Notes under the pieces: model-generated
What the model saw: only the letters and a program-made list of their open reading frames with translations
What the model was told of the DNA's origin: nothing
The model's database searches: none
Part shown: positions 3,169-54,572 of the stretch, piece after piece
Layout: every line of letters starts with the position of its first letter
How positions within the stretch are numbered: position 1 is the first letter of the stretch
Assembly: GCA_964539415.1 (NCBI GenBank)
Contig: CAZIID010000001.1
Coordinates: forward strand, 11,979-75,978
Origin: an uncultured Candidatus Saccharibacteria bacterium
GTDB lineage: Bacteria; Patescibacteriota; Minisyncoccia; Phycocordibacterales; GWA1-40-21
Direction: 5' to 3'
DNA length: 64,000 nt
Translations under genes and position numbers: made by a program

Positions 3169-3173
3169 TCTTA

Positions 3174-19226: not shown

Positions 19227-19230
19227 AATA

Positions 19231-19277: not shown

Positions 19278-19292
19278 AAGAAATAAAACAGT

Positions 19293-19730: not shown

Positions 19731-19796
19731 CAGAACAAATTTCACAAGGTAGAAATAAATTACACTTTAATTATTTTGTAGTGTATAATATTAGAA

Positions 19797-20444: not shown

Positions 20445-20448
20445 AAAT

Positions 20449-22269: not shown

Positions 22270-22309
22270 TAACTTTTTGAAAAAAACAATCCGTGTTATA
22301 ATTTTAAGA

Positions 22310-23317: not shown

Positions 23318-23338
23318 TTATTAATTTAGAATAAAAAA

Positions 23339-23728
23339 ATGTTAAATTCCCTAATTAAAAGAAAAAACCTAGTAAAAAAGACTTTTTCTATTTTAAGTAT
23401 GTTAATAGCCTTACCTTCAATTATCTACGCAGAAGCTGTGAATTTTGTACCTTTAGAAACAAGTTCTCCTTGGGCCAAAAGCATTGACCCAAATAAACCA
23501 GCAGAATTCTTCCAAAGTGTTTTTAATACTGGTCTTGCTATCGCTGCCACACTTGCAGTTGTGATGATTATGTATGGAGGCGTAAAATATATGACAACAG
23601 ATGCATGGAATAACAAAGAAGAAGCGAAGGAAATCATTCAAAACGCCGTATATGGTCTAGTTCTTGCTTTGGTTTCTTACTTAATACTTTACACAATAAA
23701 CCCAGACATATTAAATGTTAGACTATAA
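23339..23728 (+). CDS. TrbC/VirB2-like pilin
   Basis: 129 aa: a signal peptide, a first hydrophobic helix (LAIAATLAVVMIMYGG), a short charged loop, and a second hydrophobic helix (AVYGLVLALVSYLILY). This architecture is typical of VirB2/TrbC pilins. Confidence 0.45.
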   Translation: MLNSLIKRKNLVKKTFSILSMLIALPSIIYAEAVNFVPLETSSPWAKSIDPNKPAEFFQSVFNTGLAIAATLAVVMIMYGGVKYMTTDAWNNKEEAKEIIQNAVYGLVLALVSYLILYTINPDILNVRL

Positions 23729-23843
23729 TAAGTACTTGTCCCGTTGTAAATTCAGCTGATACAAGTAAAATAAAAGGGCAAGATTGTTTAAGATAATAAA
23801 TAAGATTAAAAAAAATTATGAGGATTAAAATTTTACAACTGGG

Positions 23844-27255: not shown

Positions 27256-28593
27256 ATGTCTGACAATAAAACACTTTGGGAAAATGTCTTAACGCAAATG
27301 GAGCTTTCTATGTCGAAGGCGAATTTTAGTATGTGGTTTAAAGATACATATGTTCAAAAACAAGATGATGGAACAGTTTTTTTAGCTGTACCAAACGTTT
27401 TTGTAAAAGATTGGCTAATAAACAAATACCACAAAGATATATTAAAAAATCTCAGAGAGTTTGGTGAGCATATTAGAGCTGTAGAATACATAGTAGCCAA
27501 AGATGAGAGTAAGAAGCCTCAAATGGTTGTAAATAACTGTACACACACAGAACTTCCTTTAAATGACTTCTACATAAACAAGGAAGACAATCTCAATCCT
27601 AAGTACACATTTGATACTTTTGTTGTTGGCCCATTCAACGAACTTGCACACGCAGCATCTCAAGCAATATTAAAAAAGATTGTTATTTATAATCCATTTT
27701 TCGTTTATGGAAGCACTGGTCACGGAAAAACACACCTTATACAGGCACTTGGCAATCATTTTAAAAATACAGACTCAAATAAAAAGATCTTTTATATGAC
27801 CTCAGAAAAGTTTGTTAATGATTATCTAAATTCATTAAGTAATGGAACAATAAATGCTTTTAAAGAAAAATACAGAAAATATGATGTTTTAATCATAGAC
27901 GATATTCAATTCCTATCAAAGAAAGATAAGTCACAAGAAGAATTCTTCCATTTATTCAATAGCTTCCACGAAAACGGCAAGCAACTAATCTTCTCATCTG
28001 ATAAGCACCCAAACTTTATTCCTGACATTGAAGACAGAATTAAATCTAGATTTAATGCTGGTATGATAGTAGAAATTCAAAAACCAGATTTTGAATCAAG
28101 AATTCAGATATTTAAAAAGAAATCTGCAATGATAAATCTAGTTATTTCAAATGAAGTGATTGAATACTTGGCTTCTTCTGTAGAGGGGAACATAAGAGAG
28201 CTTGAAGGAATACTCAATATAATAATGTGTCAGACACAACTCAAACAAAGAGATCTAAACATTACAGAAATAAAGGAATTGTTAAAAAACAGTGGAAAAC
28301 CAAAGAAAACATTTTCAATTAAAGAAATAATAAAAACAATTGCTGATTTTTACGCAATTGAAGAGGATGAAATATACGAAAAAGGAAGAAAAAAGGAAGT
28401 TATAAAACCAAGACAGGTTATTATGTATATTCTTAGAGAAGATTTTGATATTTCTTTCCCATCTATCGGAGAAAAGGTAGGTAATAGAGATCACTCCACA
28501 GTTATTCACTCTTACGAGAAGATAAAAAATGATATGAAAGTAGACAATAATTTATTACAGGAGATAACACAAATAAGATCAATGTTGAAATAG
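27256..28593 (+). CDS. dnaA: Chromosomal replication initiator protein DnaA
   Basis: AAA+ Walker A GSTGHGKTHL, and the C-terminal DnaA-box-binding domain with the DnaA signature. Confidence 0.9.
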   Translation: MSDNKTLWENVLTQMELSMSKANFSMWFKDTYVQKQDDGTVFLAVPNVFVKDWLINKYHKDILKNLREFGEHIRAVEYIVAKDESKKPQMVVNNCTHTELPLNDFYINKEDNLNPKYTFDTFVVGPFNELAHAASQAILKKIVIYNPFFVYGSTGHGKTHLIQALGNHFKNTDSNKKIFYMTSEKFVNDYLNSLSNGTINAFKEKYRKYDVLIIDDIQFLSKKDKSQEEFFHLFNSFHENGKQLIFSSDKHPNFIPDIEDRIKSRFNAGMIVEIQKPDFESRIQIFKKKSAMINLVISNEVIEYLASSVEGNIRELEGILNIIMCQTQLKQRDLNITEIKELLKNSGKPKKTFSIKEIIKTIADFYAIEEDEIYEKGRKKEVIKPRQVIMYILREDFDISFPSIGEKVGNRDHSTVIHSYEKIKNDMKVDNNLLQEITQIRSMLK

Positions 28594-28808
28594 TATAGAT
28601 AACTTGTGGATAATCAAAAAATAACCTGTTAATAATATATTGATAAATAAACAGATAATTTTAAACAGTTAGTTATAAACAAAAATATAAACATAGAAAA
28701 AATATAAAAAAATATTTTATGCTTATAAAATAAGGATTAAATAGTTATAAACATATACACACATATAATATTAATAATAGGTTTTTAATAGAAAATAAAT
28801 AAAATACT
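28594..28808. promoter_or_regulatory. Candidate oriC: AT-rich dnaA-dnaN spacer with a perfect DnaA box TGTGGATAA (28605-28613) and several degenerate boxes (TATAGATAA, TTATAAACA x2, TGATAAATA)
   Basis: DnaA boxes seen directly in the sequence. Gene orientation switches across the rpmH/dnaA divergence. Confidence 0.55.
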
Positions 28809-29909
28809 ATGAAATTAGAATCTGTAAAAGATAAATTGAATGTAGCAGTCTCAAAGGCAGGGAGAATAACAAGTAAAAATCTTACATTACCTGTACTTTC
28901 TTGTTTACTTTTAGAGACAAATAAAAATTTTCTAAAGATAAAAGCCACTAACTTAGATTTAGGAGTTGAAATAATGATACCGGTCAAAACAGAGATTGAA
29001 GGTGTTGTAGCAGTTCCTGCACAAGTTATAAACAATTTTTTAAATAATTTAGAGGAAGATAAAAGTGTTTTTATAGAAAAGAAAGAAAATACACTAGAAA
29101 TAAGATCAGAAAGTAGTGTTGCAGAAATAAAGACATTTCCTATAGATGATTTTCCAACAATCCCTTCTGTTGATAATGGTAAAACATTTAAAATACAAGC
29201 TAAGGACTTTTTAAAGGGAATAAGAGCTGTTATCTATAGTTCTTCAACATCAACTGTTAAACCTGAACTTTCAAGTGTCTATATATACTCAGAAGAAGAA
29301 TATCTTGTTTTTGTTGCCACAGATTCTTTCCGTCTTGCAGAGAAAAAAGTTAAAATTAAAAAAACAGCTGATTTTGGAGGAATATTGCTACCTTATAAAA
29401 ATGCCTCAGATATTATTAAACTTTTTGAAGATATAGATGATGAACTTGAAATAAAAGTTTCAAAAAACCAACTTTCTGTTTTTTATAGTGGTTTGTATGT
29501 TGTGTCACGCGTTATTGATGGGGTGTTTCCAGATTACAAACAAATAATTCCAAAAGAAACAAAAACTCAGGTTATTGTTTTGAAACAAGATATTATAAAT
29601 TCTCTTAAATTATCAAATATTTTTTCTGATAGCTTTAATCAGATAAATTTAAAAGTTTTACCAAGTAAAAGAATTTTTCAAGCAAAAACAAAAAATCTAG
29701 ATGTTGGAGAAAATATAAATCAGATAGAGGCAACAACAGAAGGGGAGGATATAGAAATAAACTTTAATCATAGATATATTACAGATTGTCTTTCTTCTAT
29801 AGACTCTGATAGTGTATTTTTAACTTTTAATGGTATGGCTAAGCCACTTGTAATAAAAGGTGTATCTGATAAGAGTTTTACGTATTTGGTGATGCCGATG
29901 AATAGGTGA
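28809..29909 (+). CDS. dnaN: DNA polymerase III beta sliding clamp
   Basis: Three-domain beta-clamp-like sequence located directly after dnaA. Confidence 0.85.
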   Translation: MKLESVKDKLNVAVSKAGRITSKNLTLPVLSCLLLETNKNFLKIKATNLDLGVEIMIPVKTEIEGVVAVPAQVINNFLNNLEEDKSVFIEKKENTLEIRSESSVAEIKTFPIDDFPTIPSVDNGKTFKIQAKDFLKGIRAVIYSSSTSTVKPELSSVYIYSEEEYLVFVATDSFRLAEKKVKIKKTADFGGILLPYKNASDIIKLFEDIDDELEIKVSKNQLSVFYSGLYVVSRVIDGVFPDYKQIIPKETKTQVIVLKQDIINSLKLSNIFSDSFNQINLKVLPSKRIFQAKTKNLDVGENINQIEATTEGEDIEINFNHRYITDCLSSIDSDSVFLTFNGMAKPLVIKGVSDKSFTYLVMPMNR

Positions 29910-34388: not shown

Positions 34389-34787
34389 GGTAGATTTTTT
34401 TAATGAGTAAAACGAATTTAAAAAATCACCACCCTGTGAAATGCCAGGCTCTTGCCGGCATATTTCACTGGGGTCGGATTTCTTATCCCCACTATACTAC
34501 TTTGAAAATTATTTTTCAATAAAAAACCCTCCCCAGCCAATCTTAGGATAATCGCATTAAAAATAAGGCGACTGGCTGGGGAGGTAGAAAGTGTGGAGTC
34601 ACAAATGTAGACAATTAATGTCAAAGCGTTATCTTAAAAGGTACGCCACCTTGTTTTGCATGCCATAGCTATCCAAACTTTTCAAATCTCAAAAGAACTG
34701 TGTTCATATAATATCAAACCAAGGGAAACAGGCAAGATGGAAAGTGGATAACTTTTTTTAAAAACACTTTATGATATAATTTATAGT

Positions 34788-37700
34788 ATGATGAGCAAAA
34801 AATTCTTTCTTTATTTCATTTTTTTTCTAGTTTTACCTCTTACAACTGCTTTAACGACAAACGCTAGCACTCTTTATTTTAAGGATATTAGTGAAACCCC
34901 TGATTTTGCTTGGGATACGGTTGCAAATTGGTGGACTGATGCAGAGGCAACAATACCCGCTGCAGCCTTACCGTTAAATGGTGACGTTGTTAATATTGAA
35001 AGCAATTTAACTGCTGGCCCATCTATCCCTGTAAGTTTGAGCGTAATAGTGGTAAATAATGTTCTTTACGACGTTGTTTTCACAGGGGCTTCCGGCCCTG
35101 CTATCTTTAATGGTGCCTGTGGTAACGCTGGAACCGTTGATGGTAATGCCGAATTTAATAATGGTAGTAATAATTATGGCACTGTTACGGGGGATGCAAT
35201 TTTTAGTGCAGAATCAAAGAATAATAATGCGGCTCTAGTACAAGGGAATGCAATCTTTTGGGGGACATCGAAAAACCAAGGAACTGTAACTGGGTATGCT
35301 ACTTTTTTTGACTCGTCAATAAACGATCTAGGATCAGTCGGTGGAACCGGAACTTTCAATAATAGTTCAAGTAACAACGGAACAGTGATAGGCGCTGCTT
35401 ATTTTTATGGTAGCTCTATAAGTGAACAGGGGAGTTACTCCGCTGATGTAAATTTTTATGATAGTTCCTATAATAATGCTAGTACAATAACAAGTGCAAC
35501 TTTTAATGGAAGTTCGCGTAATGATATTAATGGAACAATTGGTACTGCTGTTTTTAATGACACGTCTATTAATAATGGAAGTATTAGCATATTAGCAACT
35601 TTCAATGGTAATTCATTAAACACCGGGACTGTTGCCTCGAGTGATTTTTATGGTAGTTCATATAATGATTATAGTGGAAATGTCACTACTGCTACATTCA
35701 ATAACACATCTTTTAATAATTATGGAACAGTTGGCACTGCAATTTTTAATGATTCCTCATTTAACGATGGGTCAGTATCTACTGCTACATTTAATAGTAC
35801 ATCATACAATAATAATGGGACTGTTGAGAATGCGACTTTTAGTGGTCAAGCATATAACGCCGGCACTGTCACCTTTTCTTATGGCACAATGTTTAGAAAT
35901 GATGCTGCAGTTACTACAAATAATGGGACAATTACGACAAACATTGGTTCGATTTCCGGAAATGATGGCACGGTCACTACTAACTCGGGAACAATTGGAG
36001 CACAAAATAATATCGTGGAGACAAACAATGGGACAATTGAAAGTAATAATAATTTTGGTTTTATTACTACAAATAATGGAACTGTCACTATAAACAGTGG
36101 ATCAGTTACGACAAATAGTAATACAGGATCTATACCGGAGATTATTGGAGTGGTAGAAACAAATAATGGTTCAATAGGTCAAACATATAATGGATCTTCG
36201 GTGACTGACAACTATGGAACTGTTTCAAATAATAATGGTGGAACTATAACAAACAATTATGGCACTGTTACAGACAATAGTACTGGAAGTGTCTCAAATA
36301 ACTACGGAACCATAGTCTTAAATGGAAATATAGTAAGTACTAATATGGAGACTGGTATAATTCAAACCAATAGTGCTGGTTCAATATCAGACAATATCGC
36401 TGGTGGCGTTGTTGGTACCAACGACGGATATATATATGGAGGTATATATACAACTTTTGTAGTTAATGATAATGGATATATTGAAGGCGGTTCCTTCTGC
36501 CAATCCCAAGCTGAAACAGGTGGCACCATCAACGCAGGCACCTTCAGCATCTCTAACTCACGCTGTTACAACGCAGCTCCAGGTATATCCATCTCCCCCA
36601 CAAATCTTTCAGTCCTAAATTCTTGGACTCCAGGTCTCTCTTTCGCAACATCAACATCATGTAGCTACAAGATAGACAGTGGTAATTATGTATCACTAAA
36701 CTGTGCATCTCCTTCAATACCTGCACCATCAAACTTTCCACACTTACTGACCATAGTAGCTGAAAACCAGTACAGAACAGCAACATCAACACTCTCTTTC
36801 ATCTACTCCACACTACTCGGCATCTTCACCGGCAGTCTCACCCCATACGCAGTGCCAGCACCTACATACCACACTCTCACAGACATATACAATGTAATCA
36901 TGTCAGGTACACCATCTACTGCAGGAAATCACACACTCTCAACATCACAAACGCCGAACGCAACAACAGGTCACTCAACAAGTGAGATATATGTAAGACT
37001 TGCAAACCTTATAGACGCATCAACTATCAAACCAGGAATCACTTACCTTGGTGTTACAGGAGGAGGAGAGACACCAGATCCAATTGATCTGCCAACATCA
37101 TCTCTTACACCAACAGGGACACCAAATGACAGAACAGGTTTTTCTCTTGAAGATATATACCAACTTGTAAAGAACAATGTCAGAGTCACCTCATCAACAC
37201 ACAGTACCTCAACTTCAGCACATCCTACAGCAACTACCACTCACTCAATTGAAGATGTTTATAGAACACTGACAGCTCTTGTACAGCCGGGGAATATATT
37301 ACTTGGAGATAGTTATTTGGGAGTGGAGGGGGCGTATGTCCCCATGGAAGGTCTAGCTATCCAATACAGGATGAATGATAATACAGCAAGCACTGTTGTT
37401 GTTGATACTTCTGATAATGCAATAAATGCATCTTCCTCACGAAACACTTCTTTGATACATACTGACTCTGGTAATCCGCCATCGCTAAACGGAGCATTTG
37501 CTTTTAATGGCACATCCGATGGAGTTACAGTTCTTGATTCTGCAACTTTTACTAATAATTTTACTATTGCTTTCTGGTATTACGCAGATAGTGATTCAAC
37601 TGGAACTAGAAGCCTATACTGGATTCATGTCCCTGGTTACAATAACTATTTCTCACAATTATCTATGGCACATAACTTAAATGTTTATGGATGGTCAAAT

Positions 37701-38012
37701 TATGATGGAACTAATAATCCATACAATAACAGTATTCCAACAGCTTCTTTGGGTGCTTGGCATTTTGTTGTTGTCGAAAGAAATCTGGCAACTTCTAAGA
37801 TGTCTCTTTATATTGATAATGTAAGTGTCGGAGAATTTGTTGATACAACGATCGGTACTGAACCAGTATACAATGAGCTTTATATAGGCAGAGATGCAGG
37901 CCCAGGATATTTAAAAGGTAAAATGGATGATTTCCGTGTATACGACAGAGTCTTAACAACAGATGAAAAATCTCAGTTGTATAATTCTGGGCTCGGAAAT
38001 GAACTAATATAA
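34788..38012 (+). CDS. Giant secreted surface protein: signal peptide, N/S/T-rich beta-helix-like pseudo-repeats (FNNSS.NNGTV), a conserved central module, and a C-terminal LamG/concanavalin-A-like lectin domain
   Basis: Signal peptide, long repetitive region, and C-terminus (GAWHFVVVERNLATSKMSLYIDNVSVGEF...KGKMDDFRVYDRVLT) typical of LamG-like jelly-roll domains. Paralog of the gene at 42462..45302. Confidence 0.6.
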   Translation: MMSKKFFLYFIFFLVLPLTTALTTNASTLYFKDISETPDFAWDTVANWWTDAEATIPAAALPLNGDVVNIESNLTAGPSIPVSLSVIVVNNVLYDVVFTGASGPAIFNGACGNAGTVDGNAEFNNGSNNYGTVTGDAIFSAESKNNNAALVQGNAIFWGTSKNQGTVTGYATFFDSSINDLGSVGGTGTFNNSSSNNGTVIGAAYFYGSSISEQGSYSADVNFYDSSYNNASTITSATFNGSSRNDINGTIGTAVFNDTSINNGSISILATFNGNSLNTGTVASSDFYGSSYNDYSGNVTTATFNNTSFNNYGTVGTAIFNDSSFNDGSVSTATFNSTSYNNNGTVENATFSGQAYNAGTVTFSYGTMFRNDAAVTTNNGTITTNIGSISGNDGTVTTNSGTIGAQNNIVETNNGTIESNNNFGFITTNNGTVTINSGSVTTNSNTGSIPEIIGVVETNNGSIGQTYNGSSVTDNYGTVSNNNGGTITNNYGTVTDNSTGSVSNNYGTIVLNGNIVSTNMETGIIQTNSAGSISDNIAGGVVGTNDGYIYGGIYTTFVVNDNGYIEGGSFCQSQAETGGTINAGTFSISNSRCYNAAPGISISPTNLSVLNSWTPGLSFATSTSCSYKIDSGNYVSLNCASPSIPAPSNFPHLLTIVAENQYRTATSTLSFIYSTLLGIFTGSLTPYAVPAPTYHTLTDIYNVIMSGTPSTAGNHTLSTSQTPNATTGHSTSEIYVRLANLIDASTIKPGITYLGVTGGGETPDPIDLPTSSLTPTGTPNDRTGFSLEDIYQLVKNNVRVTSSTHSTSTSAHPTATTTHSIEDVYRTLTALVQPGNILLGDSYLGVEGAYVPMEGLAIQYRMNDNTASTVVVDTSDNAINASSSRNTSLIHTDSGNPPSLNGAFAFNGTSDGVTVLDSATFTNNFTIAFWYYADSDSTGTRSLYWIHVPGYNNYFSQLSMAHNLNVYGWSNYDGTNNPYNNSIPTASLGAWHFVVVERNLATSKMSLYIDNVSVGEFVDTTIGTEPVYNELYIGRDAGPGYLKGKMDDFRVYDRVLTTDEKSQLYNSGLGNELI

Positions 38013-38030
38013 TAGTCGATGCCTAAAATT

Positions 38031-38058
38031 TAAAAACCACACCAGAAGGTGTGGTTTT
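38031..38058. terminator. Bidirectional terminator (CCACACC-AGAA-GGTGTGG)
   Basis: Seen directly in the sequence, between convergent genes. Confidence 0.7.
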
Positions 38059-39098
38059 TATAATAGTTTGCCAGAACCCTTTATGTTCAAATGTCTTTTT
38101 GCTCTTTCTGTTATAACTCTCCCTCTCGAAGTTCTTTCTATAAAACCAAGTTGTAGTAGATATGGTTCGTAGACATCTTCTATTGTGGCTTGCTCTTCTG
38201 ATAGGGCAGCGGCGAGTGTGTTTAGCCCCACTGGGCCACCATTAAATTTTTCTTCCATCACTTTTAGTAATGTTCTGTCTGCTTGAGTAAGTCCGACTTC
38301 ATCTATACAAAGCAAGTCTAAAGCCTCATCTACCATCTTTTTGGAAAGCTTTTCACCTCGCACTTGAGCCATATCACGACATCTTTTCAGTAAATAATTT
38401 GCAGTTCTTGGGGTAAACCTGCTTCTAACTGCTATTTCTTTTATGGCCTCCTCATCTATTTCAACATCAAGTATTTTTGCAGACCTTTTTACTATTTGTC
38501 CTATTTCTTCATTTGTATAAAATTCTAGTTTGAAAACTCCTCCAGAAAATCTTGAACGTAGTGGAGCAGAGAGAAGAGCGATTCGTGTTGTCGCTGCGAT
38601 AAGTGTAAAAGGTGGAAGCTCAAGCTGTATGGTTCGAGCTGATGGACCTTTACCGATAATAATATCAAGTGAGCCCGACTCCATAGCGGGGTAGAGAACT
38701 TCTTCTATTGCTTTGTTGAGTCTGTGTATCTCGTCAATAAATAAAATATCGTTAGGAGCTAGGTTTGTAAGAATAGATGCCAAATCACCAACTTTTTCTA
38801 TGGCTGGTCCTGATGTTATTTTTATTTGAGCGTTAGTTTCTTTTGCTATAAGGTGTGCGAGAGTCGTTTTTCCAAGTCCAGGTGGGCCGTAAAATAAAAT
38901 ATGTTCTGGTGTGTGATTCCTTTGTTTGGCTGCAGTAAGTAAAATATGAAGATTATCTTTGATGTTTTTTTGACCTATGTATTCATTCCAAGAGGAAGGT
39001 CTAAGGGTCTGGTCTAAATGAGTGGTGTCTGTGCTTTCACGGCTTAAAACCTCATCATTTTCACAGGATTCTTTTTTAATGTTATTTTTGCTTGACAT
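38058..39098 (-). CDS. ruvB: Holliday junction branch-migration helicase RuvB
   Basis: Walker [12 protein letters not shown], sensor and arginine-finger regions, and the C-terminal winged helix. Confidence 0.9.
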
Positions 39099-39452
39099 AA
39101 TTCCATTTTATGCTATACTCTTATTAGAGCCTAACGAGAAGGCTTTTTTCATTCCTTTTACGTAGTGTTTGCAAAAATATTATTGTTCAGGTTGTAAATC
39201 TCTAAACAATTATGCTCGAAAGAGTTTACGAGTTTTTTTTCAAGGACATTTTGGTTCTATTTCTTCGGAAATTTTGCTGAGGTTATCCTTAAAGACTAAT
39301 TTAACTTTTTACCGCCAGGTTTAAAGTATTGTTTAGAGATTTATGTCTTGAACTAAAATCACCGCTTTGTGGCCCCGCCATAAGGCGGTGATTTATTCTT
39401 ATATTATTCTGACAAAAAACTTTTGCAACTGTTGAAAACCTTTAAGACACAT

Positions 39453-41135
39453 TTAATCTTCTGATTCAAGGTCTATCACACGGGAGAGTTCATCGAAGGT
39501 GCTTACACCTTTCAAAACTTTTAATGTTCCGTCTTGTCTCATATCTAAAATATTTTGTGGGAGAGCTGCTTTTTTTATATCTCTGTCACTTGGGTTTGAA
39601 ACGATAGCTTCTGTTACTTCTTTTGTTGTAAGTATGGCTTCACATATAGCTACTCTTCCTTTGTATCCAGTGTTGTGACATTTTTCACAACCTTTTGATT
39701 CCCAAACTTTTTCCATTTGAACTCCTTCAATATATGTTTTGTCTGTAATACCTTCTATGATTTTTTTTACAAGTTCTTTTTCTTTTTCATCCATCACTCT
39801 TTCTTGCCTACAAGACAAACAAAGTTTTCTTATAAGTCTTTGCGCCATTGTAATATTTACAGCGGAAGAAATAATTTTAGGATTTACTTTAAGATCTATA
39901 AGGCGGGGGAAGGCACCAGCTGCACTATTTGTGTGAAGTGTTGAAAAAACTAAGTGACCTGTAAGTGCTGAGTTGATCGCGATGGCCGCTGTTTCTGTGT
40001 CACGGATTTCTCCCACCATAATAACGTCTGGATCTTGTCGCAGTGCTGCTCGAAGTCCTGAAAGAAAAGTATATCCCTTTTCTTCTTCAACTTGCGTTTG
40101 AACAACTCCAGGAAGATGGTATTCAATCGGGTCTTCAATCGTGATAATTTTTATTTCAGAAGAAAAGATTTTTCTCATAAAGGCATATAAGGTAGTGGTT
40201 TTACCAGAACCTGTAGGACCAGTGATAAGAAGCATACCGTTTGGCTTTTGGATTTGTTCAAGCAAAATATCTAGAGTTCTTTTTTCTATACCAAGCTCTT
40301 CGAGGGGAACAGAAATAGATTTTGGATTGAGGATTCTCATAACCACGGATTCGTTGTAAGCACCAGGTAATATGGATGTTCTTATTTGAATATCATTTTC
40401 TTGAATCTCTACGCTAAATCTTCCGTCTTGAGATTCACTTATGACGTTAAGTTTTAAACCAGAGAGAAGTTTAATTCTTGAAAGGAGAAGTTTATATGTT
40501 GGTTTATCAAATTGGGTTATGTTTAAAAGGACTCCATCAAGTCTGTATCTCATTCGGATAAATTCTTCTTCGGGCTCTATGTGAATATCAGAAGCTTTTA
40601 GAGCGAGTGCTCCAGCAAGCATGATTTCTAATATTTTTGAAATTCGGTATGTTTGTTTTATTCCCATCAATCCTTCTACTTTTGTTTGGACATCTTGGAT
40701 TGATTTAATTTCACTTATAAGTGTCGTGACGCTTTCGTTTGCAATATCAAAAGTTCCTGCTCGGCTTGCTGATGAGCCAGATATTTCACTGTATCTTCCC
40801 CAAGCTTTTTCTAAACTCGCTGTGGAGACTACACTAAGAGTAGGGAAGTAATTGTCTTCTTCAAGTTTTTTGATTACTTGAGCGGTTTTGTCGGCACCAG
40901 GTGCAAGAACTGCCACTTGGATTCTCCTGTCTGTTATATCAAATACGGCAACCTTTGTGTCACGAGCTGTTTCTTCGGGTAATAGTCTAAGTGCTTCTGA
41001 GTTAATAGCAACAGGCCCAAGATCAAGATAGTTTAAACCATATCTAACAGCAAGAATTTTGGCGACTTCCTCTTCTTCTTTCGCTCTAAGTTCTGCTATA
41101 CGAGCTTTTTGTTTTTCTTCATCAAATTGGACCAT
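39453..41135 (-). CDS. GspE/PilB-family secretion or pilus-assembly ATPase (stand-alone paralog)
   Basis: Walker A GPTGSGKTTT, Asp and His boxes, and the C-terminal tetracysteine motif (CLSC...CEKC). Confidence 0.8.
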   Translation of the reverse strand: MVQFDEEKQKARIAELRAKEEEEVAKILAVRYGLNYLDLGPVAINSEALRLLPEETARDTKVAVFDITDRRIQVAVLAPGADKTAQVIKKLEEDNYFPTLSVVSTASLEKAWGRYSEISGSSASRAGTFDIANESVTTLISEIKSIQDVQTKVEGLMGIKQTYRISKILEIMLAGALALKASDIHIEPEEEFIRMRYRLDGVLLNITQFDKPTYKLLLSRIKLLSGLKLNVISESQDGRFSVEIQENDIQIRTSILPGAYNESVVMRILNPKSISVPLEELGIEKRTLDILLEQIQKPNGMLLITGPTGSGKTTTLYAFMRKIFSSEIKIITIEDPIEYHLPGVVQTQVEEEKGYTFLSGLRAALRQDPDVIMVGEIRDTETAAIAINSALTGHLVFSTLHTNSAAGAFPRLIDLKVNPKIISSAVNITMAQRLIRKLCLSCRQERVMDEKEKELVKKIIEGITDKTYIEGVQMEKVWESKGCEKCHNTGYKGRVAICEAILTTKEVTEAIVSNPSDRDIKKAALPQNILDMRQDGTLKVLKGVSTFDELSRVIDLESED

Positions 41136-41168
41136 ACTGTGCTTGATTATATCATAGAAGTTCTCTAG

Positions 41169-41209
41169 GTGTCACATTTTTGAAAAATAGTTTCAAAAAT
41201 GTGACACCT
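41169..41209. repeat. Perfect 18-bp-arm palindrome GGTGTCACATTTTTGAAA...TTTCAAAAATGTGACACC in a divergent promoter region
   Basis: Seen directly in the sequence. Confidence 0.7.
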
Positions 41210-41320
41210 TGTCTTTGCGAGAAGCGAAGCGTTTACCCCGTGAAATTTCTTTGTATTTCATTGGGGACGAAGCAAACCAGTTTTAAGATGGATTACTTCG
41301 GAAGGTCTTGCAGAGACAAA
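41210..41320. mobile_element. Miniature repeat in reverse orientation (GTCTTTGCGAG...CGAAGCAAACCAG) carrying a nested approximately 45-bp GTTTACCCCGTGAAATTTC...GGGGA insert
   Basis: Reverse complement of the 19231/25185 unit. The nested insert matches 47951-47990. Confidence 0.55.
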
Positions 41321-41458
41321 TAAAAAAAGAAGATTGTTGGTAGTTGCTTTTTATAACTATATATGGTATAATACTAGTAGGTTAATAAAGTACATAAAAA
41401 GCCTAAAAACAGTGTTTTTGGCTTAAAATATCAAAAATCAAAAAGAAGGAGTGGTAAG

Positions 41459-41848
41459 ATGAAGAAAGTAGTTGTTGGTCTGTTTGGTTTTCTTGTGGTT
41501 CTGGTACTTCTCTCTGTGTGTGGTTGTGAAGAAACAGACGCCCACAAGAACAGCGACAGTAACAGAGACAATTATTACGGCAACAACGATTCTGGCAGAA
41601 GTATCACTGTCAGAGTTGAGAATCAGTCGCCTTACGATATCATTGTTTACAAAGGTGACTCTCGTTATGCAACACTTGAATCTGGTGCTGGGGTTAGCGT
41701 ATATGCTTACCTAGTTTCGGATCAAGAGTTGTCGGTCGCTGTTTCCACACCAGTCTTTGGTGTTAGGAAAAATTTTGATAGGTATGACTCTTATTCCAAC
41801 TTTGTAGTCTATGAAAGTGATTACAGTGTGGAGTCTGAACAATATTGA
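41459..41848 (+). CDS. Putative lipoprotein (signal peptide with a lipobox-like Cys)
   Basis: LLSVCGCEE after a hydrophobic signal segment. Confidence 0.45.
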   Translation: MKKVVVGLFGFLVVLVLLSVCGCEETDAHKNSDSNRDNYYGNNDSGRSITVRVENQSPYDIIVYKGDSRYATLESGAGVSVYAYLVSDQELSVAVSTPVFGVRKNFDRYDSYSNFVVYESDYSVESEQY

Positions 41849-41906
41849 AGTAGCATTTTTGCCCGGGGAGAAACTAGTTTTCTCTTCGGGCATTTTTTGT
41901 TAGTAT

Positions 41907-42347
41907 ATGAGGATGATAATCACAAGTAAGAGTGTAGAACAGACAGGAGAGGTAGCCAAGGAGTTTTTACAGAAAGTATCTCACGGTGTATATACCGGAG
42001 CTCTTGTTGTTGGTCTTTATGGGGATTTGGGTTCTGGAAAGACTACTTTTACTCAGGCGTTTGCAAAACATTTGGGAATCACCAACAATATTACTAGTCC
42101 AACTTTTGTTATAGAGAAGATTTACAAGATTGAAAATAGTCCATTTGAAAATCTTATTCATATTGATGCATACAGACTAGAAAATTCTAAAGAACTTTCA
42201 ATGCTTTCTTGGCAGGAGCAGGTAACGAATCCTAAAAACCTTATTCTCATAGAATGGCCAGAAAGGGTAGTTGATATCTTGCCAGAAAATCACGCGAAAA
42301 TTATGTTTAAGTTTATTTCTGAAACTGAAAGGGAAATCGAGATTTAA
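41907..42347 (+). CDS. tsaE: tRNA threonylcarbamoyladenosine biosynthesis protein TsaE
   Basis: P-loop GDLGSGKTTF and the typical length of about 150 aa. Confidence 0.75.
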   Translation: MRMIITSKSVEQTGEVAKEFLQKVSHGVYTGALVVGLYGDLGSGKTTFTQAFAKHLGITNNITSPTFVIEKIYKIENSPFENLIHIDAYRLENSKELSMLSWQEQVTNPKNLILIEWPERVVDILPENHAKIMFKFISETEREIEI

Positions 42348-42364
42348 AAATAAGAAGGACATGA

Positions 42365-42407
42365 AAAAAGAGGATTTTGCAAAGCAAAATCCTCTTTTGT
42401 TTTTTTT
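42365..42407 (+). terminator. Rho-independent terminator (AGAGGATTTTGC-AAA-GCAAAATCCTCT followed by T8)
   Basis: Seen directly in the sequence. Confidence 0.7.
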
Positions 42408-42461
42408 GAAAAAACCATGATATAATAAACTCAATTAATTAATAACTACAAGACTTATTAA

Positions 42462-45302
42462 ATGAAAAAACAAAACAAAATAATCTTTTCTTTTCTAGTT
42501 TCTATCATCCTATTTTTGGGATTTAGTTTTTCAAATACTTATGCCGCTACTTTGTATTTTAATAATAACACAGGAGATGGTACTTGGGATACTTCTGAAA
42601 ATTGGTGGAGCGATGTATCAATGCAGACCCCCGCTGGATCAATTCCAAGTAATGGAGACGCTGTCTACATTGCCGCAGATATTTGCACAGGACCATCTCA
42701 GACTGTAAATCTGGACCATGTATATGTGGCTGATGAAAGTACTGGAGGAGGAAACTTTACTGTTAATTTGTCGAATGCTGTGAGTGATGTCACTTTTAAT
42801 AATGGTTCCTATAATTACTACGGCAGCGCGATTACTGGAAATGTTACTTTTACCGGCAGTTCTTATCCATTTAATCCTATAAGCCAAGACTTCTTCTACG
42901 GAGGCTCTGTGACTGGTTCAGTAACCTTTACGGCAGACAATGTCACTTTTACTATCGGGGATGGCCAATACTGGAATATGGACACTTCTTCGTGGATTTT
43001 TACAGGAGTAGGTACACCAACGTGGATTTTTAATGGAGGAACTTTAAACAGTACAACTATTAATGGTAATGCTATTTTTAATTTTGGTTCTTATAGTTAT
43101 TCTTCGAAAGTGGATGGTAATGCTACATTTACTGGAACTTCATATTCAAATGATCCGACAGGAGTTGATATGCAAGTTAATGGTTCGGGTGTTACTGGAA
43201 CCGTAACCTTCACCGGGGATAATGTAACTTTTTCAGTCAGTAACTTTGTATGGCAGACTGAGGCGTCATCATGGATTTTTACAGGAGAAGGGACACCCAC
43301 CTGGACCTTTGAAAGTGGGTCAGATTTAAATTATGGAACGATACATGGTAATGCCGTTTTTAAGGCTGGTTCAATTTTTAGTTACGGAACCGTAGTAGGT
43401 GATGTCACTTTTTACGGAAGTTCACAAAATGGAAATAGAATAGAAGGTAGTGCGATCTTTAATGGAAGTTCATATTTAAACGACCCGACAAGGGATCCCA
43501 ATGTGGGAAGTTCGGCGGGAATCACCGGGACAGTTACTTTTACAGGGAATAATGTCACTTTTACATTAGAAAGTGAGCATACTTGGGATTCGGACACATC
43601 ATCATGGATTTTTACAGGTAGTGGTGCTCCTCTATTAATAAACGAAAGTTCGATAAATGGCGGAACTTTTTTTATCCCGATTAGAAATGATAACACTATA
43701 GAAGGTGGAATATTTCATGGTTCGATAACAAATAATAATTATATATATAATGGCAGTTTTTATTCCCTCGTAACAAACAATGGAACAATTTACGGTGGAT
43801 CATTTTGTCAGTCTCAGGCCGAAACAGGCGGTTCAATAGAGGATTATAACGGAGTTACTTTTGGAATAAGCAACCCTCTCTGTTACAACACTCCCACTTC
43901 CATCATTGTTAATTCTCCAACAAATCTTTCCGTCCTTTCTTCGTGGTCCCCATCAATCTCTTTCACTGGCTCTCCAACAACGTGTAAATATAAAATGGAC
44001 AGTGATGACTATGTAACACTTGATTGTAATTCCATGTCTATTCCTACACCAACTGAGTGGCCACACTTACTTACTGTGACAGCAGAAAGTCCATATGGTG
44101 GATCTACTTCAACAATCTCTTTTATCTTCTCTACTCTACTTGGTAATTTCACAGGTTCTCTCTCACCAATCGCATTACCTGCACCAACTCACCACACACT
44201 TGGAGACATATACAACGTAATAGTAGAGGGAACACCATCAGAGACAAATGATCATACTCTCTCAACTACTACAACTCCTACAGCAACCACCACACACTCA
44301 ACAAGTGAGATATACGCACGTCTTGCAAACCTTATTGATGCATCAACTATCAAATCAGGAGTAACATACCTTGGTGTCACAGGAGGAGGAGAGACACCAG
44401 AGCCAATTGAGATTATACCAACATCACTTACACCACTTCTCACACCAAATGACAGAACAGGTTTCTCTCTTGAAGATATATACCAACTCGTAAAGAACAA
44501 TGTAAGAGTTACTTCATCAACTCATGATATTACAAACTCGTCCACTGTCGGTCTAACTCAACATTCTATTGAAGATATCTATAGAACTCTTACTGCTCTG
44601 ATACAGCCGGGGAATGTTTTACTTGGAGAGAGTTATTTGGGGGTGGAGGGAGCTTATGATCCAAGACCGATTGCACAGTGGAAGATGAATGATAATGCTG
44701 GGTCTACAACAGTCCTAGACAGTTCAGGAAATGGACTTGACGGAACTGCAATACAGAATACGAGTGTTATTCATGCGACGGGTGTTGTGGGCGGGGCGTT
44801 GAGTTTTGATGGTGTGAGTGACACTGTATCAATAAATAATTTTACTATGGATGCAGATTGGTCAATTGATGGTTGGATTAAACCGACGATTAATCAAGTT
44901 GGTGCGATAATTTCACAATCAACTGATAGTAATAACAATGCGGTCATATTTCTCCAAGGTGCCAATAATGGAGAACTAACATTTTATGTTAATTCAGAGG
45001 GAAATAACGTCGTAAACGTTGCTTCTGCTGGAGGATTTAATTTGAATGAGTGGAAGCATTTTGTTTTAGCTTATGATGGAATTGATTATCATTTTTATAT
45101 TAATGGTGTTGAAGGGACTACTGTGTATAATAATGCTCAGTCGTGGGGTAGTTATAGTGGAAACTTGGTTCTAGGACATCGTGATATGGATGATAGTTAC
45201 TATTTTGGTGGTTTAATGGACGATGTAAGAGTCTATAACAGAGCTTTATCACAAGAAGAAATCAGTGCACTCTATAATTCAGGTAACGGAACAGAGAATT
45301 AA
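42462..45302 (+). CDS. Giant secreted surface protein; paralog of the gene at 34788..38012 (beta-helix-like repeats, conserved central module, LamG-like C-terminal domain)
   Basis: Shares the N-terminal ATLYF...W.T..NWW.D motif, the approximately 285-aa central module and the LamG-like C-terminus (WKHFVLAYDGIDYHFYINGVEG...LMDDVRVYNRALS). Confidence 0.6.
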   Translation: MKKQNKIIFSFLVSIILFLGFSFSNTYAATLYFNNNTGDGTWDTSENWWSDVSMQTPAGSIPSNGDAVYIAADICTGPSQTVNLDHVYVADESTGGGNFTVNLSNAVSDVTFNNGSYNYYGSAITGNVTFTGSSYPFNPISQDFFYGGSVTGSVTFTADNVTFTIGDGQYWNMDTSSWIFTGVGTPTWIFNGGTLNSTTINGNAIFNFGSYSYSSKVDGNATFTGTSYSNDPTGVDMQVNGSGVTGTVTFTGDNVTFSVSNFVWQTEASSWIFTGEGTPTWTFESGSDLNYGTIHGNAVFKAGSIFSYGTVVGDVTFYGSSQNGNRIEGSAIFNGSSYLNDPTRDPNVGSSAGITGTVTFTGNNVTFTLESEHTWDSDTSSWIFTGSGAPLLINESSINGGTFFIPIRNDNTIEGGIFHGSITNNNYIYNGSFYSLVTNNGTIYGGSFCQSQAETGGSIEDYNGVTFGISNPLCYNTPTSIIVNSPTNLSVLSSWSPSISFTGSPTTCKYKMDSDDYVTLDCNSMSIPTPTEWPHLLTVTAESPYGGSTSTISFIFSTLLGNFTGSLSPIALPAPTHHTLGDIYNVIVEGTPSETNDHTLSTTTTPTATTTHSTSEIYARLANLIDASTIKSGVTYLGVTGGGETPEPIEIIPTSLTPLLTPNDRTGFSLEDIYQLVKNNVRVTSSTHDITNSSTVGLTQHSIEDIYRTLTALIQPGNVLLGESYLGVEGAYDPRPIAQWKMNDNAGSTTVLDSSGNGLDGTAIQNTSVIHATGVVGGALSFDGVSDTVSINNFTMDADWSIDGWIKPTINQVGAIISQSTDSNNNAVIFLQGANNGELTFYVNSEGNNVVNVASAGGFNLNEWKHFVLAYDGIDYHFYINGVEGTTVYNNAQSWGSYSGNLVLGHRDMDDSYYFGGLMDDVRVYNRALSQEEISALYNSGNGTEN

Positions 45303-45311: not shown

Positions 45312-45350
45312 AAAACACCCCACAGGAAGCTCTGTTTTTCTGTGGGGTAT
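45312..45350 (+). terminator. Rho-independent terminator (CCCCACAG...CTGTGGGG)
   Basis: Seen directly in the sequence. Confidence 0.65.
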
Positions 45351-47812: not shown

Positions 47813-48043
47813 AGCCTGCCTGCGCAGGCAGGTATGAGAAAGAACTGGATTGCCACGTTCGGAATACCTCACTCGCAAAGACGGAGCAGGGCTTCTTCTG
47901 TCATTGCGAGCGAAGCGTGGCAATCCATCTTCTCTGTCATCCCAGACTTGTTTACTCCGTGAAATTTCATAGTATTTCAACTGGGGATCTGGGATCCAGG
48001 ATTTTATCAACAAACTTTGGATTCCCGCTTGCGCGGGAATGAC
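47813..48043. mobile_element. Cluster of nested miniature inverted-repeat elements (CCTGCCTGCGCAGGCAGG palindrome; GGATTGCCACG...CGTGGCAATCC; TGTCATCCCAGAC...[45-bp insert]...ATCTGGGATCCAGG...GGATTCCCGCTTGCGCGGGAATGACA)
   Basis: Segment 47936-48043 is the reverse complement of 29929-29995 plus an inserted unit that is also found at 41228-41270. Confidence 0.65.
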
Positions 48044-51840: not shown

Positions 51841-52554
51841 ATGAATACTAAACTCAAAACTCTTTCTTATATCATCGGCGCATCACTTGTAATCGGAGGC
51901 GTAGTTCTTGCGGGTTCACTTACACCAACAGTCGTAGATACAAACACCACCTCAATGGTTACTCTACAAGACCTATGGAACAAAACCCAAGACTTCACTT
52001 ACTCCACATCTTCTTCTCCTCGTTATGTATCAACTTCATCTTCTCCTCTTGCATCCTTCAGATCATTACAAGATGTTTGGGACTCTCTTACTGAAAATCC
52101 TATAACATCAAACATTATACTTACTGGTAATACAGTGCTCGGTGTGGAGGGGAGTGCTACTGCTGGGGCTCCGGCTCTTGTTTGGTCTAATATTGCACCT
52201 ACTCGACTTTGTTGGGATGCTTCTGATTTTTCAAGTGAAGCTAATTGTTCTATTGATGGTTGGACAGCTGAGGGTTATGGTGCACTAGAATATTGTGAGA
52301 ATCTTGTAGAGGGTGGGTCAAGTAATTGGAGATTGCCATCAATCACTGAACTTTTAGCTGGTTTATCAGGACAAGTTTTAGAGGTCCCTGCTACAGTAAG
52401 TGGTTTTGATGAGATGCTTACTTATTATTGGGCTGCTGCTTATCCATATACTCCAATTCATGCTTATAGAGCTACCAGTAACCAAACTATGACTCAAGTA
52501 ACAGCTGATTATACAACTAAAGGTGTGAGACACGCTGTTCGTTGTGTCCGATAA
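51841..52554 (+). CDS. Secreted protein with a DUF1566 (Lcl C-terminal-like) domain
   Basis: N-terminal TM/signal segment and the WRLPSITELLAGL motif characteristic of DUF1566. Confidence 0.45.
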   Translation: MNTKLKTLSYIIGASLVIGGVVLAGSLTPTVVDTNTTSMVTLQDLWNKTQDFTYSTSSSPRYVSTSSSPLASFRSLQDVWDSLTENPITSNIILTGNTVLGVEGSATAGAPALVWSNIAPTRLCWDASDFSSEANCSIDGWTAEGYGALEYCENLVEGGSSNWRLPSITELLAGLSGQVLEVPATVSGFDEMLTYYWAAAYPYTPIHAYRATSNQTMTQVTADYTTKGVRHAVRCVR

Positions 52555-52671: not shown

Positions 52672-54432
52672 ATGCATCTTGAGAAAAATAAATTAAGAGA
52701 GTTTATTTTGGATTCTGGTCTTATAACAAGAACAGAGTATGACAAGGCTGAATCTGACGCCAAAAAAGATAAGAACGGTGAGACTGCCGAAAAGATTTTA
52801 GTTAGTTCTGGAAAAATAACTGAAGATGACTTGAGAAGAGCCAATGCTTACGTCTTCGGTATTCCTTTTGTTGATTTAAAAAGTCAAAAGATTGATTTTT
52901 CTGTTCTTTCTTTAATTCCTGAGCCTGTTGCAAGAAAAAATAACATTATCGCTTTCAAGAAAAATGAAGATTCTTTGGAAGTCGCAATGCTTGATACCCA
53001 AGACCTCGCTTCTATTGAATTTATAAAAAAGAAAGTTGGTTTAAAAATATTACCGAGACTCACAGATCTTGAATCTATAAAAAGTGCGATACTTCAATAT
53101 CAAAAAAGTTTGAAAGCAGAGTTCGGGGATATGATTCAAAAAGACGCCCTTGTTATCAAAGATTTTGGTAACAATGTTATTACTGACGAATCTTCTGAGG
53201 GAGCACTGAAGAAAATGGCAGAGGATCTTCCGGTTGTTCGTGTTGTAGAAACACTTTTGAAACATGCTATTTTACAGAATGCGTCAGATATTCATATAGA
53301 ATGTTTAGAAAATAGTGTGCTTATTAGATATAGAATAGACGGCATACTTCACGACGCTATGATTTTGCCCAAAAATTCTGCGACAGGTATTATTGCAAGA
53401 ATTAAAGTTTTATCAAACCTAAAGCTTGATGAAAAGAGATTACCTCAAGACGGAAGATTTAAGATAGATTTGAATGCTGAAAAAGTTTCTTTTAGAGTCT
53501 CTATTATTCCTACAAACTACGGTGAGAAGGCGGTTATGAGACTTTTGAGAGAAAATGTTGCTGGCTACACACTTGAAAGTATTGGTTTTCACGGTGAATC
53601 ACTTGAGGCGGTTTATGAAGCAACAAGACAAGCAAATGGAATGATCCTAACCACAGGTCCGACTGGTTCAGGTAAGACAACAACTTTGTATTCCATTCTT
53701 GAAATATTAAATACTCCATATGTGAATATATCAACCATTGAAGATCCTATTGAATATCAAGTTCAGAGAATTAATCAAACGCAAGTAAAGCCAGAGATTG
53801 GATTTTCTTTTTCAAATGGACTCAGATCACTTGTAAGGCAAGATCCAGATATTATTATGGTGGGGGAAATTAGAGATAATGAGACGGCTGCTATTTCTGT
53901 AAACGCTGCACTTACTGGCCACCTTGTTTTATCAACTTTGCACACGAATAGCGCTGCTGGAGCAATACCTAGACTTATGGATATGAAGGTGGAACCATTT
54001 TTATTGATTTCAACACTTAGAATTGTTTTGGCACAAAGACTTGTTAGGAAACTTTGTAAAATAAAAGAGAAATATTTTTTAACAAAAGCAGAAATCGCCA
54101 CTATTGCTAAGAATGTTGATTTAAATAGAGTTTTGGAATTCCTTAAAAAAGAAAAAATAATAGGACCAAAAGATGACTGGGAGAAAATTCCTTTTTACAG
54201 ACCAAAAATTTCCGAAGAATCTAAAGACGGTTTTAAGGGTAGGGTAGGAATTCACGAGGTATTAAAAGTATCTTCTGCTATTAAAGATATTATTATTAAA
54301 GGTGGAACTACAGAAACGATAGAAGAGCAAGCAAAAAAAGAGGGTATGATGACAATGATTGAAGACGGTATTTTTAAAGCAACTCAAGGTTTAACGACAC
54401 TTGAGGAGGTATTGAGAGTTGTTAGTGAGTAA
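52672..54432 (+). CDS. pilB: Type IV pilus assembly ATPase PilB (GspE family)
   Basis: Walker A GPTGSGKTTT and the GspE N-terminal domains. First gene of the pilus locus. Confidence 0.8.
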   Translation: MHLEKNKLREFILDSGLITRTEYDKAESDAKKDKNGETAEKILVSSGKITEDDLRRANAYVFGIPFVDLKSQKIDFSVLSLIPEPVARKNNIIAFKKNEDSLEVAMLDTQDLASIEFIKKKVGLKILPRLTDLESIKSAILQYQKSLKAEFGDMIQKDALVIKDFGNNVITDESSEGALKKMAEDLPVVRVVETLLKHAILQNASDIHIECLENSVLIRYRIDGILHDAMILPKNSATGIIARIKVLSNLKLDEKRLPQDGRFKIDLNAEKVSFRVSIIPTNYGEKAVMRLLRENVAGYTLESIGFHGESLEAVYEATRQANGMILTTGPTGSGKTTTLYSILEILNTPYVNISTIEDPIEYQVQRINQTQVKPEIGFSFSNGLRSLVRQDPDIIMVGEIRDNETAAISVNAALTGHLVLSTLHTNSAAGAIPRLMDMKVEPFLLISTLRIVLAQRLVRKLCKIKEKYFLTKAEIATIAKNVDLNRVLEFLKKEKIIGPKDDWEKIPFYRPKISEESKDGFKGRVGIHEVLKVSSAIKDIIIKGGTTETIEEQAKKEGMMTMIEDGIFKATQGLTTLEEVLRVVSE

Positions 54433-54572
54433 TTGTGAATTATTAATCTAATAGGATTTATCCTGTTAGAAATTGCGATTAGTAGTATAAAAAATATTTG
54501 TTTTATAAGGTTGTTGTATAATTTAAAATGTTGTGGGTTACGAAATCAAAATCGCACTCTACTTCTAATAGG

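Follow-up and report, generated by a model that had tools for sequence, protein, structure and literature searches.

Two mosaic paralogues for predicted secreted multidomain proteins share an unannotated module in a Paceibacteria bacterium

Introduction

What do Patescibacteria, also called the Candidate Phyla Radiation (CPR), use to touch other cells? To our knowledge, all cultivated members of the group live attached to other microbes, and their contact proteins are largely unknown outside the Saccharibacteria. The window analysed here, a 64,000-nucleotide stretch of contig CAZIID010000001.1 (assembly GCA_964539415.1), carries two large paralogous genes, which we call A and B, and raises the question of what kind of proteins they encode and how the two copies have evolved. 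We think it probable that they encode chimaeric, Sec-secreted, multidomain binding proteins of the surface or extracellular space of an uncultured, ultra-small Paceibacteria bacterium, and that they evolve as mosaics.

Taken by themselves, A and B are an ordinary case of mosaic paralogous surface proteins. What is new is an unannotated module of ∼170 amino acids (aa), the rare fusion architecture in which A and B carry it, the accessory status of both genes and one probable old conversion tract between them. The locus points to about 500 clusters of secreted proteins that combine this one conserved module with swappable lectin-like heads, some of them targets of diversity-generating retroelements (DGRs). 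Once named and modelled, the module would allow better annotation of numerous CPR proteins now labelled 'hypothetical', and it would supply candidates for studies of attachment.

Results and Discussion

Domain architecture of A and B

Both genes are intact open reading frames (ORFs) with exactly the coordinates and lengths reported in a first-pass annotation of the bare sequence (Table 1). That annotation called the products giant; at 946–1074 aa they are large rather than giant. It also took them for paralogues, and BLASTP agrees: the two align across 552 aa with 52% identity (E 1e-142). The order of parts is common to the two proteins: a signal peptide, a domain with the motif TLYF..WDT..NWW (the NWW domain), a long run of repeats, a cap with an immunoglobulin (Ig)-like domain, a linker, the module and a C-terminal Laminin_G_3 (LamG) domain. 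Structure was modelled with AlphaFold for B only. The mean predicted local distance difference test score (pLDDT) of the model is 70, and its confident parts are the N-terminal domain, the Ig-like domain (∼80–88), the helices of the module (>90) and LamG (∼80–90 over aa 740–940).

The C-terminal jelly roll of the LamG/concanavalin type proposed in the first-pass annotation is present in both proteins. PF13385 scores 74.9 bits in A and 87.6 bits in B against a gathering cut-off of 27.6, and the domain extends to the last residues of each protein, of which it makes up ∼20%. For B the fold is further confirmed by the model: the best Foldseek match in the Protein Data Bank (PDB) is 5hon_A, domain 4 of AbnA (TM 0.75), followed by clostridial neurotoxin Hc, the lectin domain of a trans-sialidase and pentraxin. 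All the matches listed are of the ConA-like/LamG type (∼190–290 alignment columns), and none is a beta-helix protein. The PF13385 match and the jelly-roll fold are what A and B have in common with LamG-like proteins at large, and P0045, a relative of theirs from Candidatus Paceibacterota, carries the NCBI label 'LamG-like jellyroll fold domain-containing protein'. Between A and B this is the least conserved part, with ∼30% identity.

Secretion, also claimed at first pass, is predicted from a Sec-type signal peptide at each N-terminus, read from the sequence and from a hydrophobicity calculation in which the signal peptide forms the strongest peak of either protein. The sole further 18-aa window above the hydrophobicity threshold is weaker and lies inside the N-terminal domain of A, at aa 80–82. 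Four cysteines in the cap and Ig-like domain (Cys 571, 593, 625 and 639 of A) are conserved in B. Neither protein contains LPxTG anywhere, and neither has a C-terminal hydrophobic segment or anchor, which rules out the class of sortase-anchored adhesins. The conserved cysteines, the lack of a second comparably hydrophobic segment of transmembrane type and the lack of LPxTG suggest that A and B are extracellular.

The N-terminal halves have diverged further; over their first thirds, A and B give only a weak BLASTP alignment (29%, E 5e-18). The motif of the NWW domain was correctly recognised in both proteins ('STLYFKDISETPDFAWDTVANWWTD' in A, 'ATLYFNNNTGDGTWDTSENWWSD' in B). The domain measures ∼70 aa, is modelled with high confidence in B and is also found in P0009, P0010, P0013 and P0062. 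Behind it lie the repeats, as rich in Asn, Ser and Thr and as divergent as first described: N+S+T+G make up 58% of aa 91–560 in A and 52% of aa 91–440 in B, that is, over 350–470 aa, and merely 7–9% of residues are charged. The units of A are ∼16–18 aa long (GtVxGxAxFnxsSxN) and then ∼7–9 aa (TNNGTVT). B is built from three tandem super-repeats (window 42912–43643) of ∼93–111 aa, spaced 279–333 nt apart and 63–76% identical as DNA; their motif, VTGxVTFTxDNVTF...W..DTSSWIFTGxGTP, recurs in large PF04519-bearing proteins such as P0003. PF04519, the bactofilin family, is found in the homologues P0003, P0004, P0006 and P0013 of the N-terminal half, and not in A or B. The repeats of A and B resemble the repeats of such beta-solenoids in being short, regular and rich in Asn, Gly and Thr; unlike bactofilins, which are cytoplasmic polymers, A and B bear signal peptides. 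The repeat pattern, the PF04519 domains of the homologues and the model of B, in which the region forms regular strands of 3–5 residues, though at a low-confidence pLDDT of 37–78 over aa 100–440, suggest a solenoid. A scan of a genome collection with the alignment of A and B returned two weak relatives of the Ig region only, one of them in a metagenome-assembled genome of Taylorbacteria.

Table 1. Position of genes A and B, their parts, the tracts of high identity between them and a third family member in the window
Feature	Coordinates	Strand	Basis or remark
Gene A, 1074 aa, predicted secreted multidomain protein	34788..38012	+	intact ORF
A signal peptide, Sec-type, aa 1-27, KK + hydrophobic core + TNA|S (predicted)	34788..34868	+	sequence reading and hydrophobicity
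A N-terminal domain, TLYF..WDT..NWW.D..P..GD.V.I	34869..35087	+	alignment with B
A solenoid-like N/S/T/G-rich repeats	35088..36467	+	composition and internal DNA repeats D4, D6
A cap 'GGSFCQSQAETGG' and Ig-like beta-sandwich, 4 conserved Cys	36468..36827	+	63% identity to B
A linker 'FTGSLTP' and 170-aa xTLxDIY / YLGVxG double-pair module	36828..37343	+	alignment A2, profile search
A high-identity tract, 82%, 274 nt	36928..37201	+	repeat search; contains low-dS core 36948-37172
A second tract, 97 nt, 85%	37242..37338	+	repeat search
A Laminin_G_3 / ConA-like jelly roll	37353..38009	+	PF13385, E 9.9e-21, aa 907-1060
Gene B, 946 aa, paralogue of A	42462..45302	+	intact ORF
B signal peptide, Sec-type, aa 1-28, TYA|A (predicted)	42462..42545	+	sequence reading and hydrophobicity
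B N-terminal TLYF..WDT..NWW domain	42546..42761	+	pLDDT 83-92 over aa 31-90; aligns with A
B solenoid-like region, three ∼93-111-aa super-repeats	42762..43781	+	DNA repeat families D2, D5
B cap and Ig-like domain	43782..44150	+	alignment with A, model, conserved Cys
B linker 'FTGSLSP' and double-pair module	44151..44666	+	profile match E 4.4e-69, aa 564-733
B high-identity tract, partner of 36928-37201	44251..44524	+	repeat search
B second tract, partner of 37242-37338	44562..44658	+	repeat search
B Laminin_G_3 / ConA-like jelly roll	44670..45299	+	Pfam E 1.2e-24, aa 784-935; Foldseek 5hon_A
Third member of the family (237 aa), with signal peptide, 'LAGSLTP', a single repeat pair and an Lcl_C (PF07603) head	51841..52554	+	translation, Pfam

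A family of secreted proteins built on an unannotated module

The module of ∼170 aa consists of two helix–helix–hairpin pairs, each of the form [x-T-L-x-D-I-Y-x-x-I ... H-x-L-S] + [S-x-S-E-I-Y-x-x-L-x-x-L-I ... G-x-x-Y-L-G-V-x-G]. It has no match in Pfam, NCBIfam, PHROGs, PDB sequences or BFVD, and is thus an unannotated domain with no detectable relatives in the structure libraries. We built a profile from an alignment of nine rows (A2), A and B among them; B matches it over positions 1–170, where A is 76.5% identical to B. Searched against 1.84 billion representative proteins, the profile recovered 498 clusters with E≤1e-3, of which 78 reach E≤1e-30. One match, P0120, is a Sushi-like repeat protein and was discarded as spurious.

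In nearly all strong matches the module starts at about residue 20–45, and in ∼82 of 86 within the first ∼65 residues. A signal-peptide-like N-terminus, often ending in 'AGSLxP', directly precedes it in 76 of the 83 complete members. The domains that follow it are diverse: among 90 members we counted Laminin_G_3 in 23, Lcl_C/DUF1566 in 21, GLUG in 17, Flg_new in nine, fn3 and Gly_rich_2 in five each, and NHL, DUF285 and others. The canonical member would thus be a signal peptide, then the module, then an exchangeable ligand-binding head.

A and B break the rule that the module comes right after the Sec signal peptide. In them it is internal (from aa 681 in A and aa 564 in B), as it is otherwise only in P0021, P0037 and P0094, and their architecture appears to be an atypical fusion, one that they have in common with P0021 and P0037 alone. 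P0076, P0045, P0093 and others, of ∼420–490 aa, consist of signal peptide, module and LamG, and align end to end with aa 550–945 of B. Moreover, the junction in front of the module, '..FI(Y/F)STLLG(I/N)FTGSL(T/S)P..PAPT', resembles the signal-peptide end and mature N-terminus of canonical members, e.g. '..IIFAGSLNPSSTPAPS' and '..IIFAGSLNPSSTPAPSG'. The likeness of the junction and the existence of canonical members with a LamG head suggest that A and B arose when a protein with solenoid and Ig-like domains was fused in front of a canonical family member. The C-terminal half, comprising a vestigial signal-peptide end ('FTGSL(T/S)P'), the module and LamG, would then amount to an entire protein of a large family in CPR bacteria, and the N-terminal half would have contributed the signal peptide, the NWW domain, the solenoid-like stalk, the disulfide-bearing cap and the Ig-like domain.

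At least one family member is diversified by a DGR. P0033, which has an Lcl_C head (locus L012, 929–4733), contains a variable region (VR, 2046–2202) that is 86% identical to a template region (TR, 4113–4269), and differs from it almost exclusively at TR adenines; the locus also encodes a reverse transcriptase (RT, 2815–3927) and bAvd (4359–4733), and a PemK toxin gene separates the RT from its target. A published study reports DUF1566 to be a DGR target that has the C-type-lectin fold (PMC11661182). P0033 links such CPR proteins, with a conserved base and a hypervariable binding head, to the module family of A and B. Unlike DGR targets, A and B have LamG heads, their mismatches with each other fall on all bases and are not adenine-specific, and no match to the RT model RVT_1 was found among ∼43 ORFs scanned of the 56 in the window that have at least 120 aa; nor was an Avd or a TR seen in the window. 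We accordingly rejected a TR/VR origin of the tract that A and B share.

A known adhesin offers a guide to what the module may do. In Lcl, the collagen-like adhesin of Legionella, the N-terminus is a helix; this end of the protein attaches again to the surface of the producer and, jointly with a collagen-like stalk, oligomerises beneath a DUF1566 head that binds glycans (PMC11162425). A and B are similar in being, by prediction, secreted and in combining a part that would serve re-attachment or oligomerisation with a stalk-like middle and a lectin-like head at the C-terminus; the Lcl_C head itself is common to Lcl and many members of the module family. Unlike Lcl, A and B have no collagen GXY repeats and no DUF1566, carrying LamG instead together with an extra solenoid and Ig half, and the N-terminal part of the module family is an unrelated xTLxDIY/YLGVxG module of 85–170 aa. 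By analogy with Lcl, the module may serve in retention or in oligomerisation. Most likely it would act as the scaffold of the family, used to present the heads, to oligomerise or to attach the protein to the cell again.

A more specific proposal goes further: the module would be a new CPR-specific fold and a common surface-display or docking unit of these host-dependent cells with a wall, serving, for example, non-covalent envelope or S-layer attachment or oligomerisation, for interchangeable heads of which some are hypermutated by DGRs. A and B would be its two-armed versions (solenoid and LamG), kept compatible for docking by gene conversion. We regard this proposal as tentative and, taken as a whole, rather doubtful.

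The window holds a third member of the family, at 51841–52554, which has the canonical short architecture. It heads a type IV pilus operon, directly upstream of pilB (52672–54432), pilC (54528–55787) and pilin-like N_methyl genes at 56253 and 56738 (region to 57268). A general link of the family to type IV pili is not supported: there are no pilus genes at four other family loci, and relatives keep the PilB-like gene without A or B. Like A and B, other members are wedged among core genes. P0023 (module, fn3 and Lcl_C; locus L013, 3610–8626) sits between rpsG (S7) and fusA (EF-G) in the otherwise highly conserved str operon, and P0028 adjoins thrS. P0021 (L016, 3–1677, from JGI 3300045131, the metagenome of the window itself) consists of solenoid, Ig and module with no LamG, and lies beside rplJ/rplL; it is split into two overlapping ORF calls, possibly by a frameshift or an assembly error.

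A conserved block with one old conversion tract

The first-pass annotation described a module that is near-identical between the two genes, with 80–90% nucleotide identity in long stretches, and suggested that it could mediate gene conversion. A contiguous block does exist, beyond low-complexity likeness. At the protein level it spans A 537–1072 and B 413–945, beginning upstream of the DNA match and taking in the cap and Ig-like domain. The sole long DNA match (36594–37338 versus 43914–44658) is 73.4% identical over 752 nt (E 5e-125), so that the homology of the two genes is real and well above chance. The quoted strings AACCTTAT[A/T]GA[C/T]GCATCAACTATCAAA[C/T]CAGGA and GGAGGAGGAGAGACACCAGA do occur in both genes. 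The claimed 80–90% holds for two tracts of 274 nt (82%) and 97 nt (85%), and not for the match as a whole; near-identity fits less than half of the module as it was delimited. In a codon-aligned sliding comparison, most of the block shows 57–72% nucleotide identity, and 79–88% is reached only at ∼36948–37217. The longest exact run is 23 nt.

The module was also said to be richer in GC than its surroundings, which is true of the raw values: 0.44 in A and 0.41 in B, against 0.345 in the window and 0.36–0.38 in the remainder of the genes. In-frame GC content at third codon positions is, however, only 0.33 (A) and 0.27 (B), with ∼0.25 in 19 other genes. The excess thus stems mostly from codons for Thr, Pro, Gly and Ala, and does not indicate foreign DNA.

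We estimated nonsynonymous (dN) and synonymous (dS) divergence between A and B per segment by the Nei–Gojobori method. The pattern noted at first pass, a conserved core between strongly divergent flanks, is borne out. The solenoid (dN 0.78, dS 1.67) and LamG (dN 0.91, dS 1.41) are highly divergent at both kinds of site. The Ig-like domain (dN 0.30, dS 1.34) and the first (dN 0.28, dS 1.21) and last (dN 0.20, dS 1.40) parts of the module combine high dS with low dN. The core of 225 bp (A aa 721–795, 36948–37172) stands apart, with a dN of 0.14 and a dS of only 0.39. Within it, 61 residues are identical, and for 48 of these the codon is the same as well, against an expectation of 23.5; none of 20000 simulations reached 48; same-codon use in LamG and the solenoid is at expectation. 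The segments also differ in their affinities. The modules of A and B are closer to each other (76.5%) than that of B is to the module of P0037, its positional orthologue in a relative (53.8%), and the solenoid of A is more similar to that of P0037 (43%) than to that of B (34%).

The low dS of the core, the excess of shared codons and the discordant identities of module and solenoid together suggest that the two genes are mosaics in which gene conversion has acted on at least one tract, of ∼225–274 bp. The suggestion of conversion between the loci thus gains some support. The 17% divergence that remains in the tract indicates that the event was not recent, and the data are consistent with an old tract as the cause of the low dS of the core. 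The remainder of the cap–Ig–module block is under purifying selection (dN/dS ∼0.2). In this account the flanking domains would have diverged to saturation, selection would have purified the cap–Ig–module block, and one tract would have been homogenised long ago.

The same pattern might have come about with no conversion at all, by purifying selection after one old duplication, the low-dS core being a sampling effect or a mark of nucleotide-level constraint, for example from an antisense element that overlaps it. Most of the shared block, with a dS of ∼1.2–1.4 near saturation and a dN/dS of ∼0.2, fits such a history, the longest exact match of 23 nt would make present-day recombination inefficient, and the core is overlapped by antisense ORFs in both genes. 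The excess of shared codons, unreached in the simulations, speaks against it, as does the fact that A and B resemble each other in the module more than B resembles the positional orthologue, although the relative that carries the latter has core proteins 83–86% identical. We consider the absence of conversion rather unlikely. The antisense ORFs, 37043–37240 (−, 65 aa) and 44252–44500 (−, 82 aa), share FFTSWYISSREKPVLSFGV; they differ in extent, are probably by-products of the kind expected of sense codons rich in Thr, Ser, Pro and Gly, and were rejected as a real element.

Function of the two proteins

The signal peptides, the conserved cysteines, the lectin-type heads, the turnover of the genes (see below) and the DGR at P0033 point to extracellular ligand binding with heads that adapt fast. 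The LamG head, and possibly the solenoid, would touch ligands, either carbohydrates or proteins, on the cell of a host or partner. CPR bacteria are obligately host-associated (PMC10633639, PMC11623550). From this biology and from the domain content we infer that A and B attach to or recognise partner cells; the label 'adhesin', given at first pass, is a putative one read from sequence.

Several observations weigh against the reading of A and B as fused members of a family of secreted binding proteins. P0021 and P0037 stop right after the module and have no head, and in P0062 the NWW domain sits behind the module, so that the module is not always a base that bears a head. At four other family loci, no recurrent neighbouring genes, for instance for pili or a sortase, were found. 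The beta-helix likeness of the repeats claimed in the first-pass annotation was not recovered by Pfam, in which the Beta_helix, pectate-lyase and pentapeptide models have no match to A or B even at E≤1, and a beta-helix is at this point a candidate fold. The low confidence of the predicted solenoid also counts against this reading. Finally, the low dS of the core could reflect nucleotide-level constraint or chance in a short tract.

An enzymatic role is improbable to our minds. A and B would in that case be secreted polysaccharide-active proteins, with a catalytic solenoid of the pectate-lyase- or glycosidase-like beta-helix type and LamG as a carbohydrate-binding module (CBM), in the manner of AbnA. 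The best structural match of LamG is indeed a domain of this extracellular arabinanase of glycoside hydrolase family 43, and enzymes commonly pair a beta-helix with a CBM. Pfam shows no match at E≤1 to any model of a glycoside hydrolase, lyase, Beta_helix or pectate-lyase, however, and a solenoid of ∼55% N/S/T/G and few charged residues, with a dN of 0.78 between A and B, does not look like an active site under conservation. The C-terminal half has relatives, and these carry no solenoid.

Genomic context and turnover

The gene order is dnaA, dnaN, PBP1, ruvC, yebC, A, ruvB, a pilB-like gene, a hypothetical gene, tsaE, B, polA, trigger factor and nusA, and the best named relatives of RuvB are from Candidatus Paceibacterota and Taylorbacteria. 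A and B are each a single-gene insertion between core genes (YebC/RuvB and TsaE/PolA). Terminator-like hairpins upstream (42366–42398) and downstream (45317–45348) of B indicate that it forms a transcription unit of its own.

Four independent metagenome contigs, all from other samples, match the window at 100% identity, so that the repeats show no population variation. Variation appears in relatives. Two loci with 93% identical RuvB and the same gene order (L007 and L009) have no B, polA adjoining tsaE. At site A, L009 has no gene but a spacer of 376 bp (5168–5542), and L007 (11214–11912) encodes a protein of 232 aa with a signal peptide, one repeat pair and a C-terminus that ends in a CVR motif and is Lcl_C-like as judged by eye, with no Pfam match on record. 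In a further relative (L014; TsaE 83% and PolA 86% identical), site B (1381–3699) is occupied by P0037, a LamG-less protein of signal peptide, solenoid, Ig and module between tsaE and polA. A and B are therefore accessory genes, and their presence and absence across the three loci suggest that both sites are hot spots at which members come, go and change architecture. Such turnover of the family between close relatives is the behaviour expected of host-range determinants.

It is very improbable that A and B derive from phage genes for receptor binding or tail fibres, or that a mobile element brought them as its cargo: presence and absence between close relatives, a match of the LamG part of B to PHROG 8510 ('virion structural protein') and a likeness of some distant matches (e.g. 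P0154) to tail-fibre repeat proteins would fit, but the PHROG match covers the generic LamG alone, the module is unmatched in PHROGs and BFVD, and the genes are single insertions with their own terminators and no phage, integrase or transposase genes beside them. A comparison of A and B for shared upstream DNA or the flanking repeats of a mobile cassette found nothing past a 10-nt match resembling a −10 element.

The intergenic region between yebC and A (34430–34590) contains two GC-rich hairpins (e.g. AACCCTCCCCAGCC...GGCTGGGGAGGT) within a divergent promoter region that is otherwise AT-rich. A stretch that overlaps the hairpins (34518–34686) is 79–80% conserved in L007 and L009; the hairpins have no credible match in Rfam. 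A 54-nt element 3' of polA (window 47832–47885) has an 87% identical copy 3' of ruvB in L007 (11041–11094), and may be a common terminator or a small repeat element.

Two further features of the window lie upstream of A. A cluster at ∼14339–25091, with a PrgI-family gene (19293–19730), a VirB4/TraG P-loop ATPase (20449–22269) and a type IV secretion system pilin (23339–23728), bordered by large ORFs without Pfam matches, looks like a conjugation-like type IV secretion system of Patescibacteria. The genes dnaA and dnaN lie at 27256–29909, and the kilobase of lowest GC content in the window (0.256) at 28001–29000, which suggests a chromosomal replication origin ∼5–7 kb upstream of gene A.

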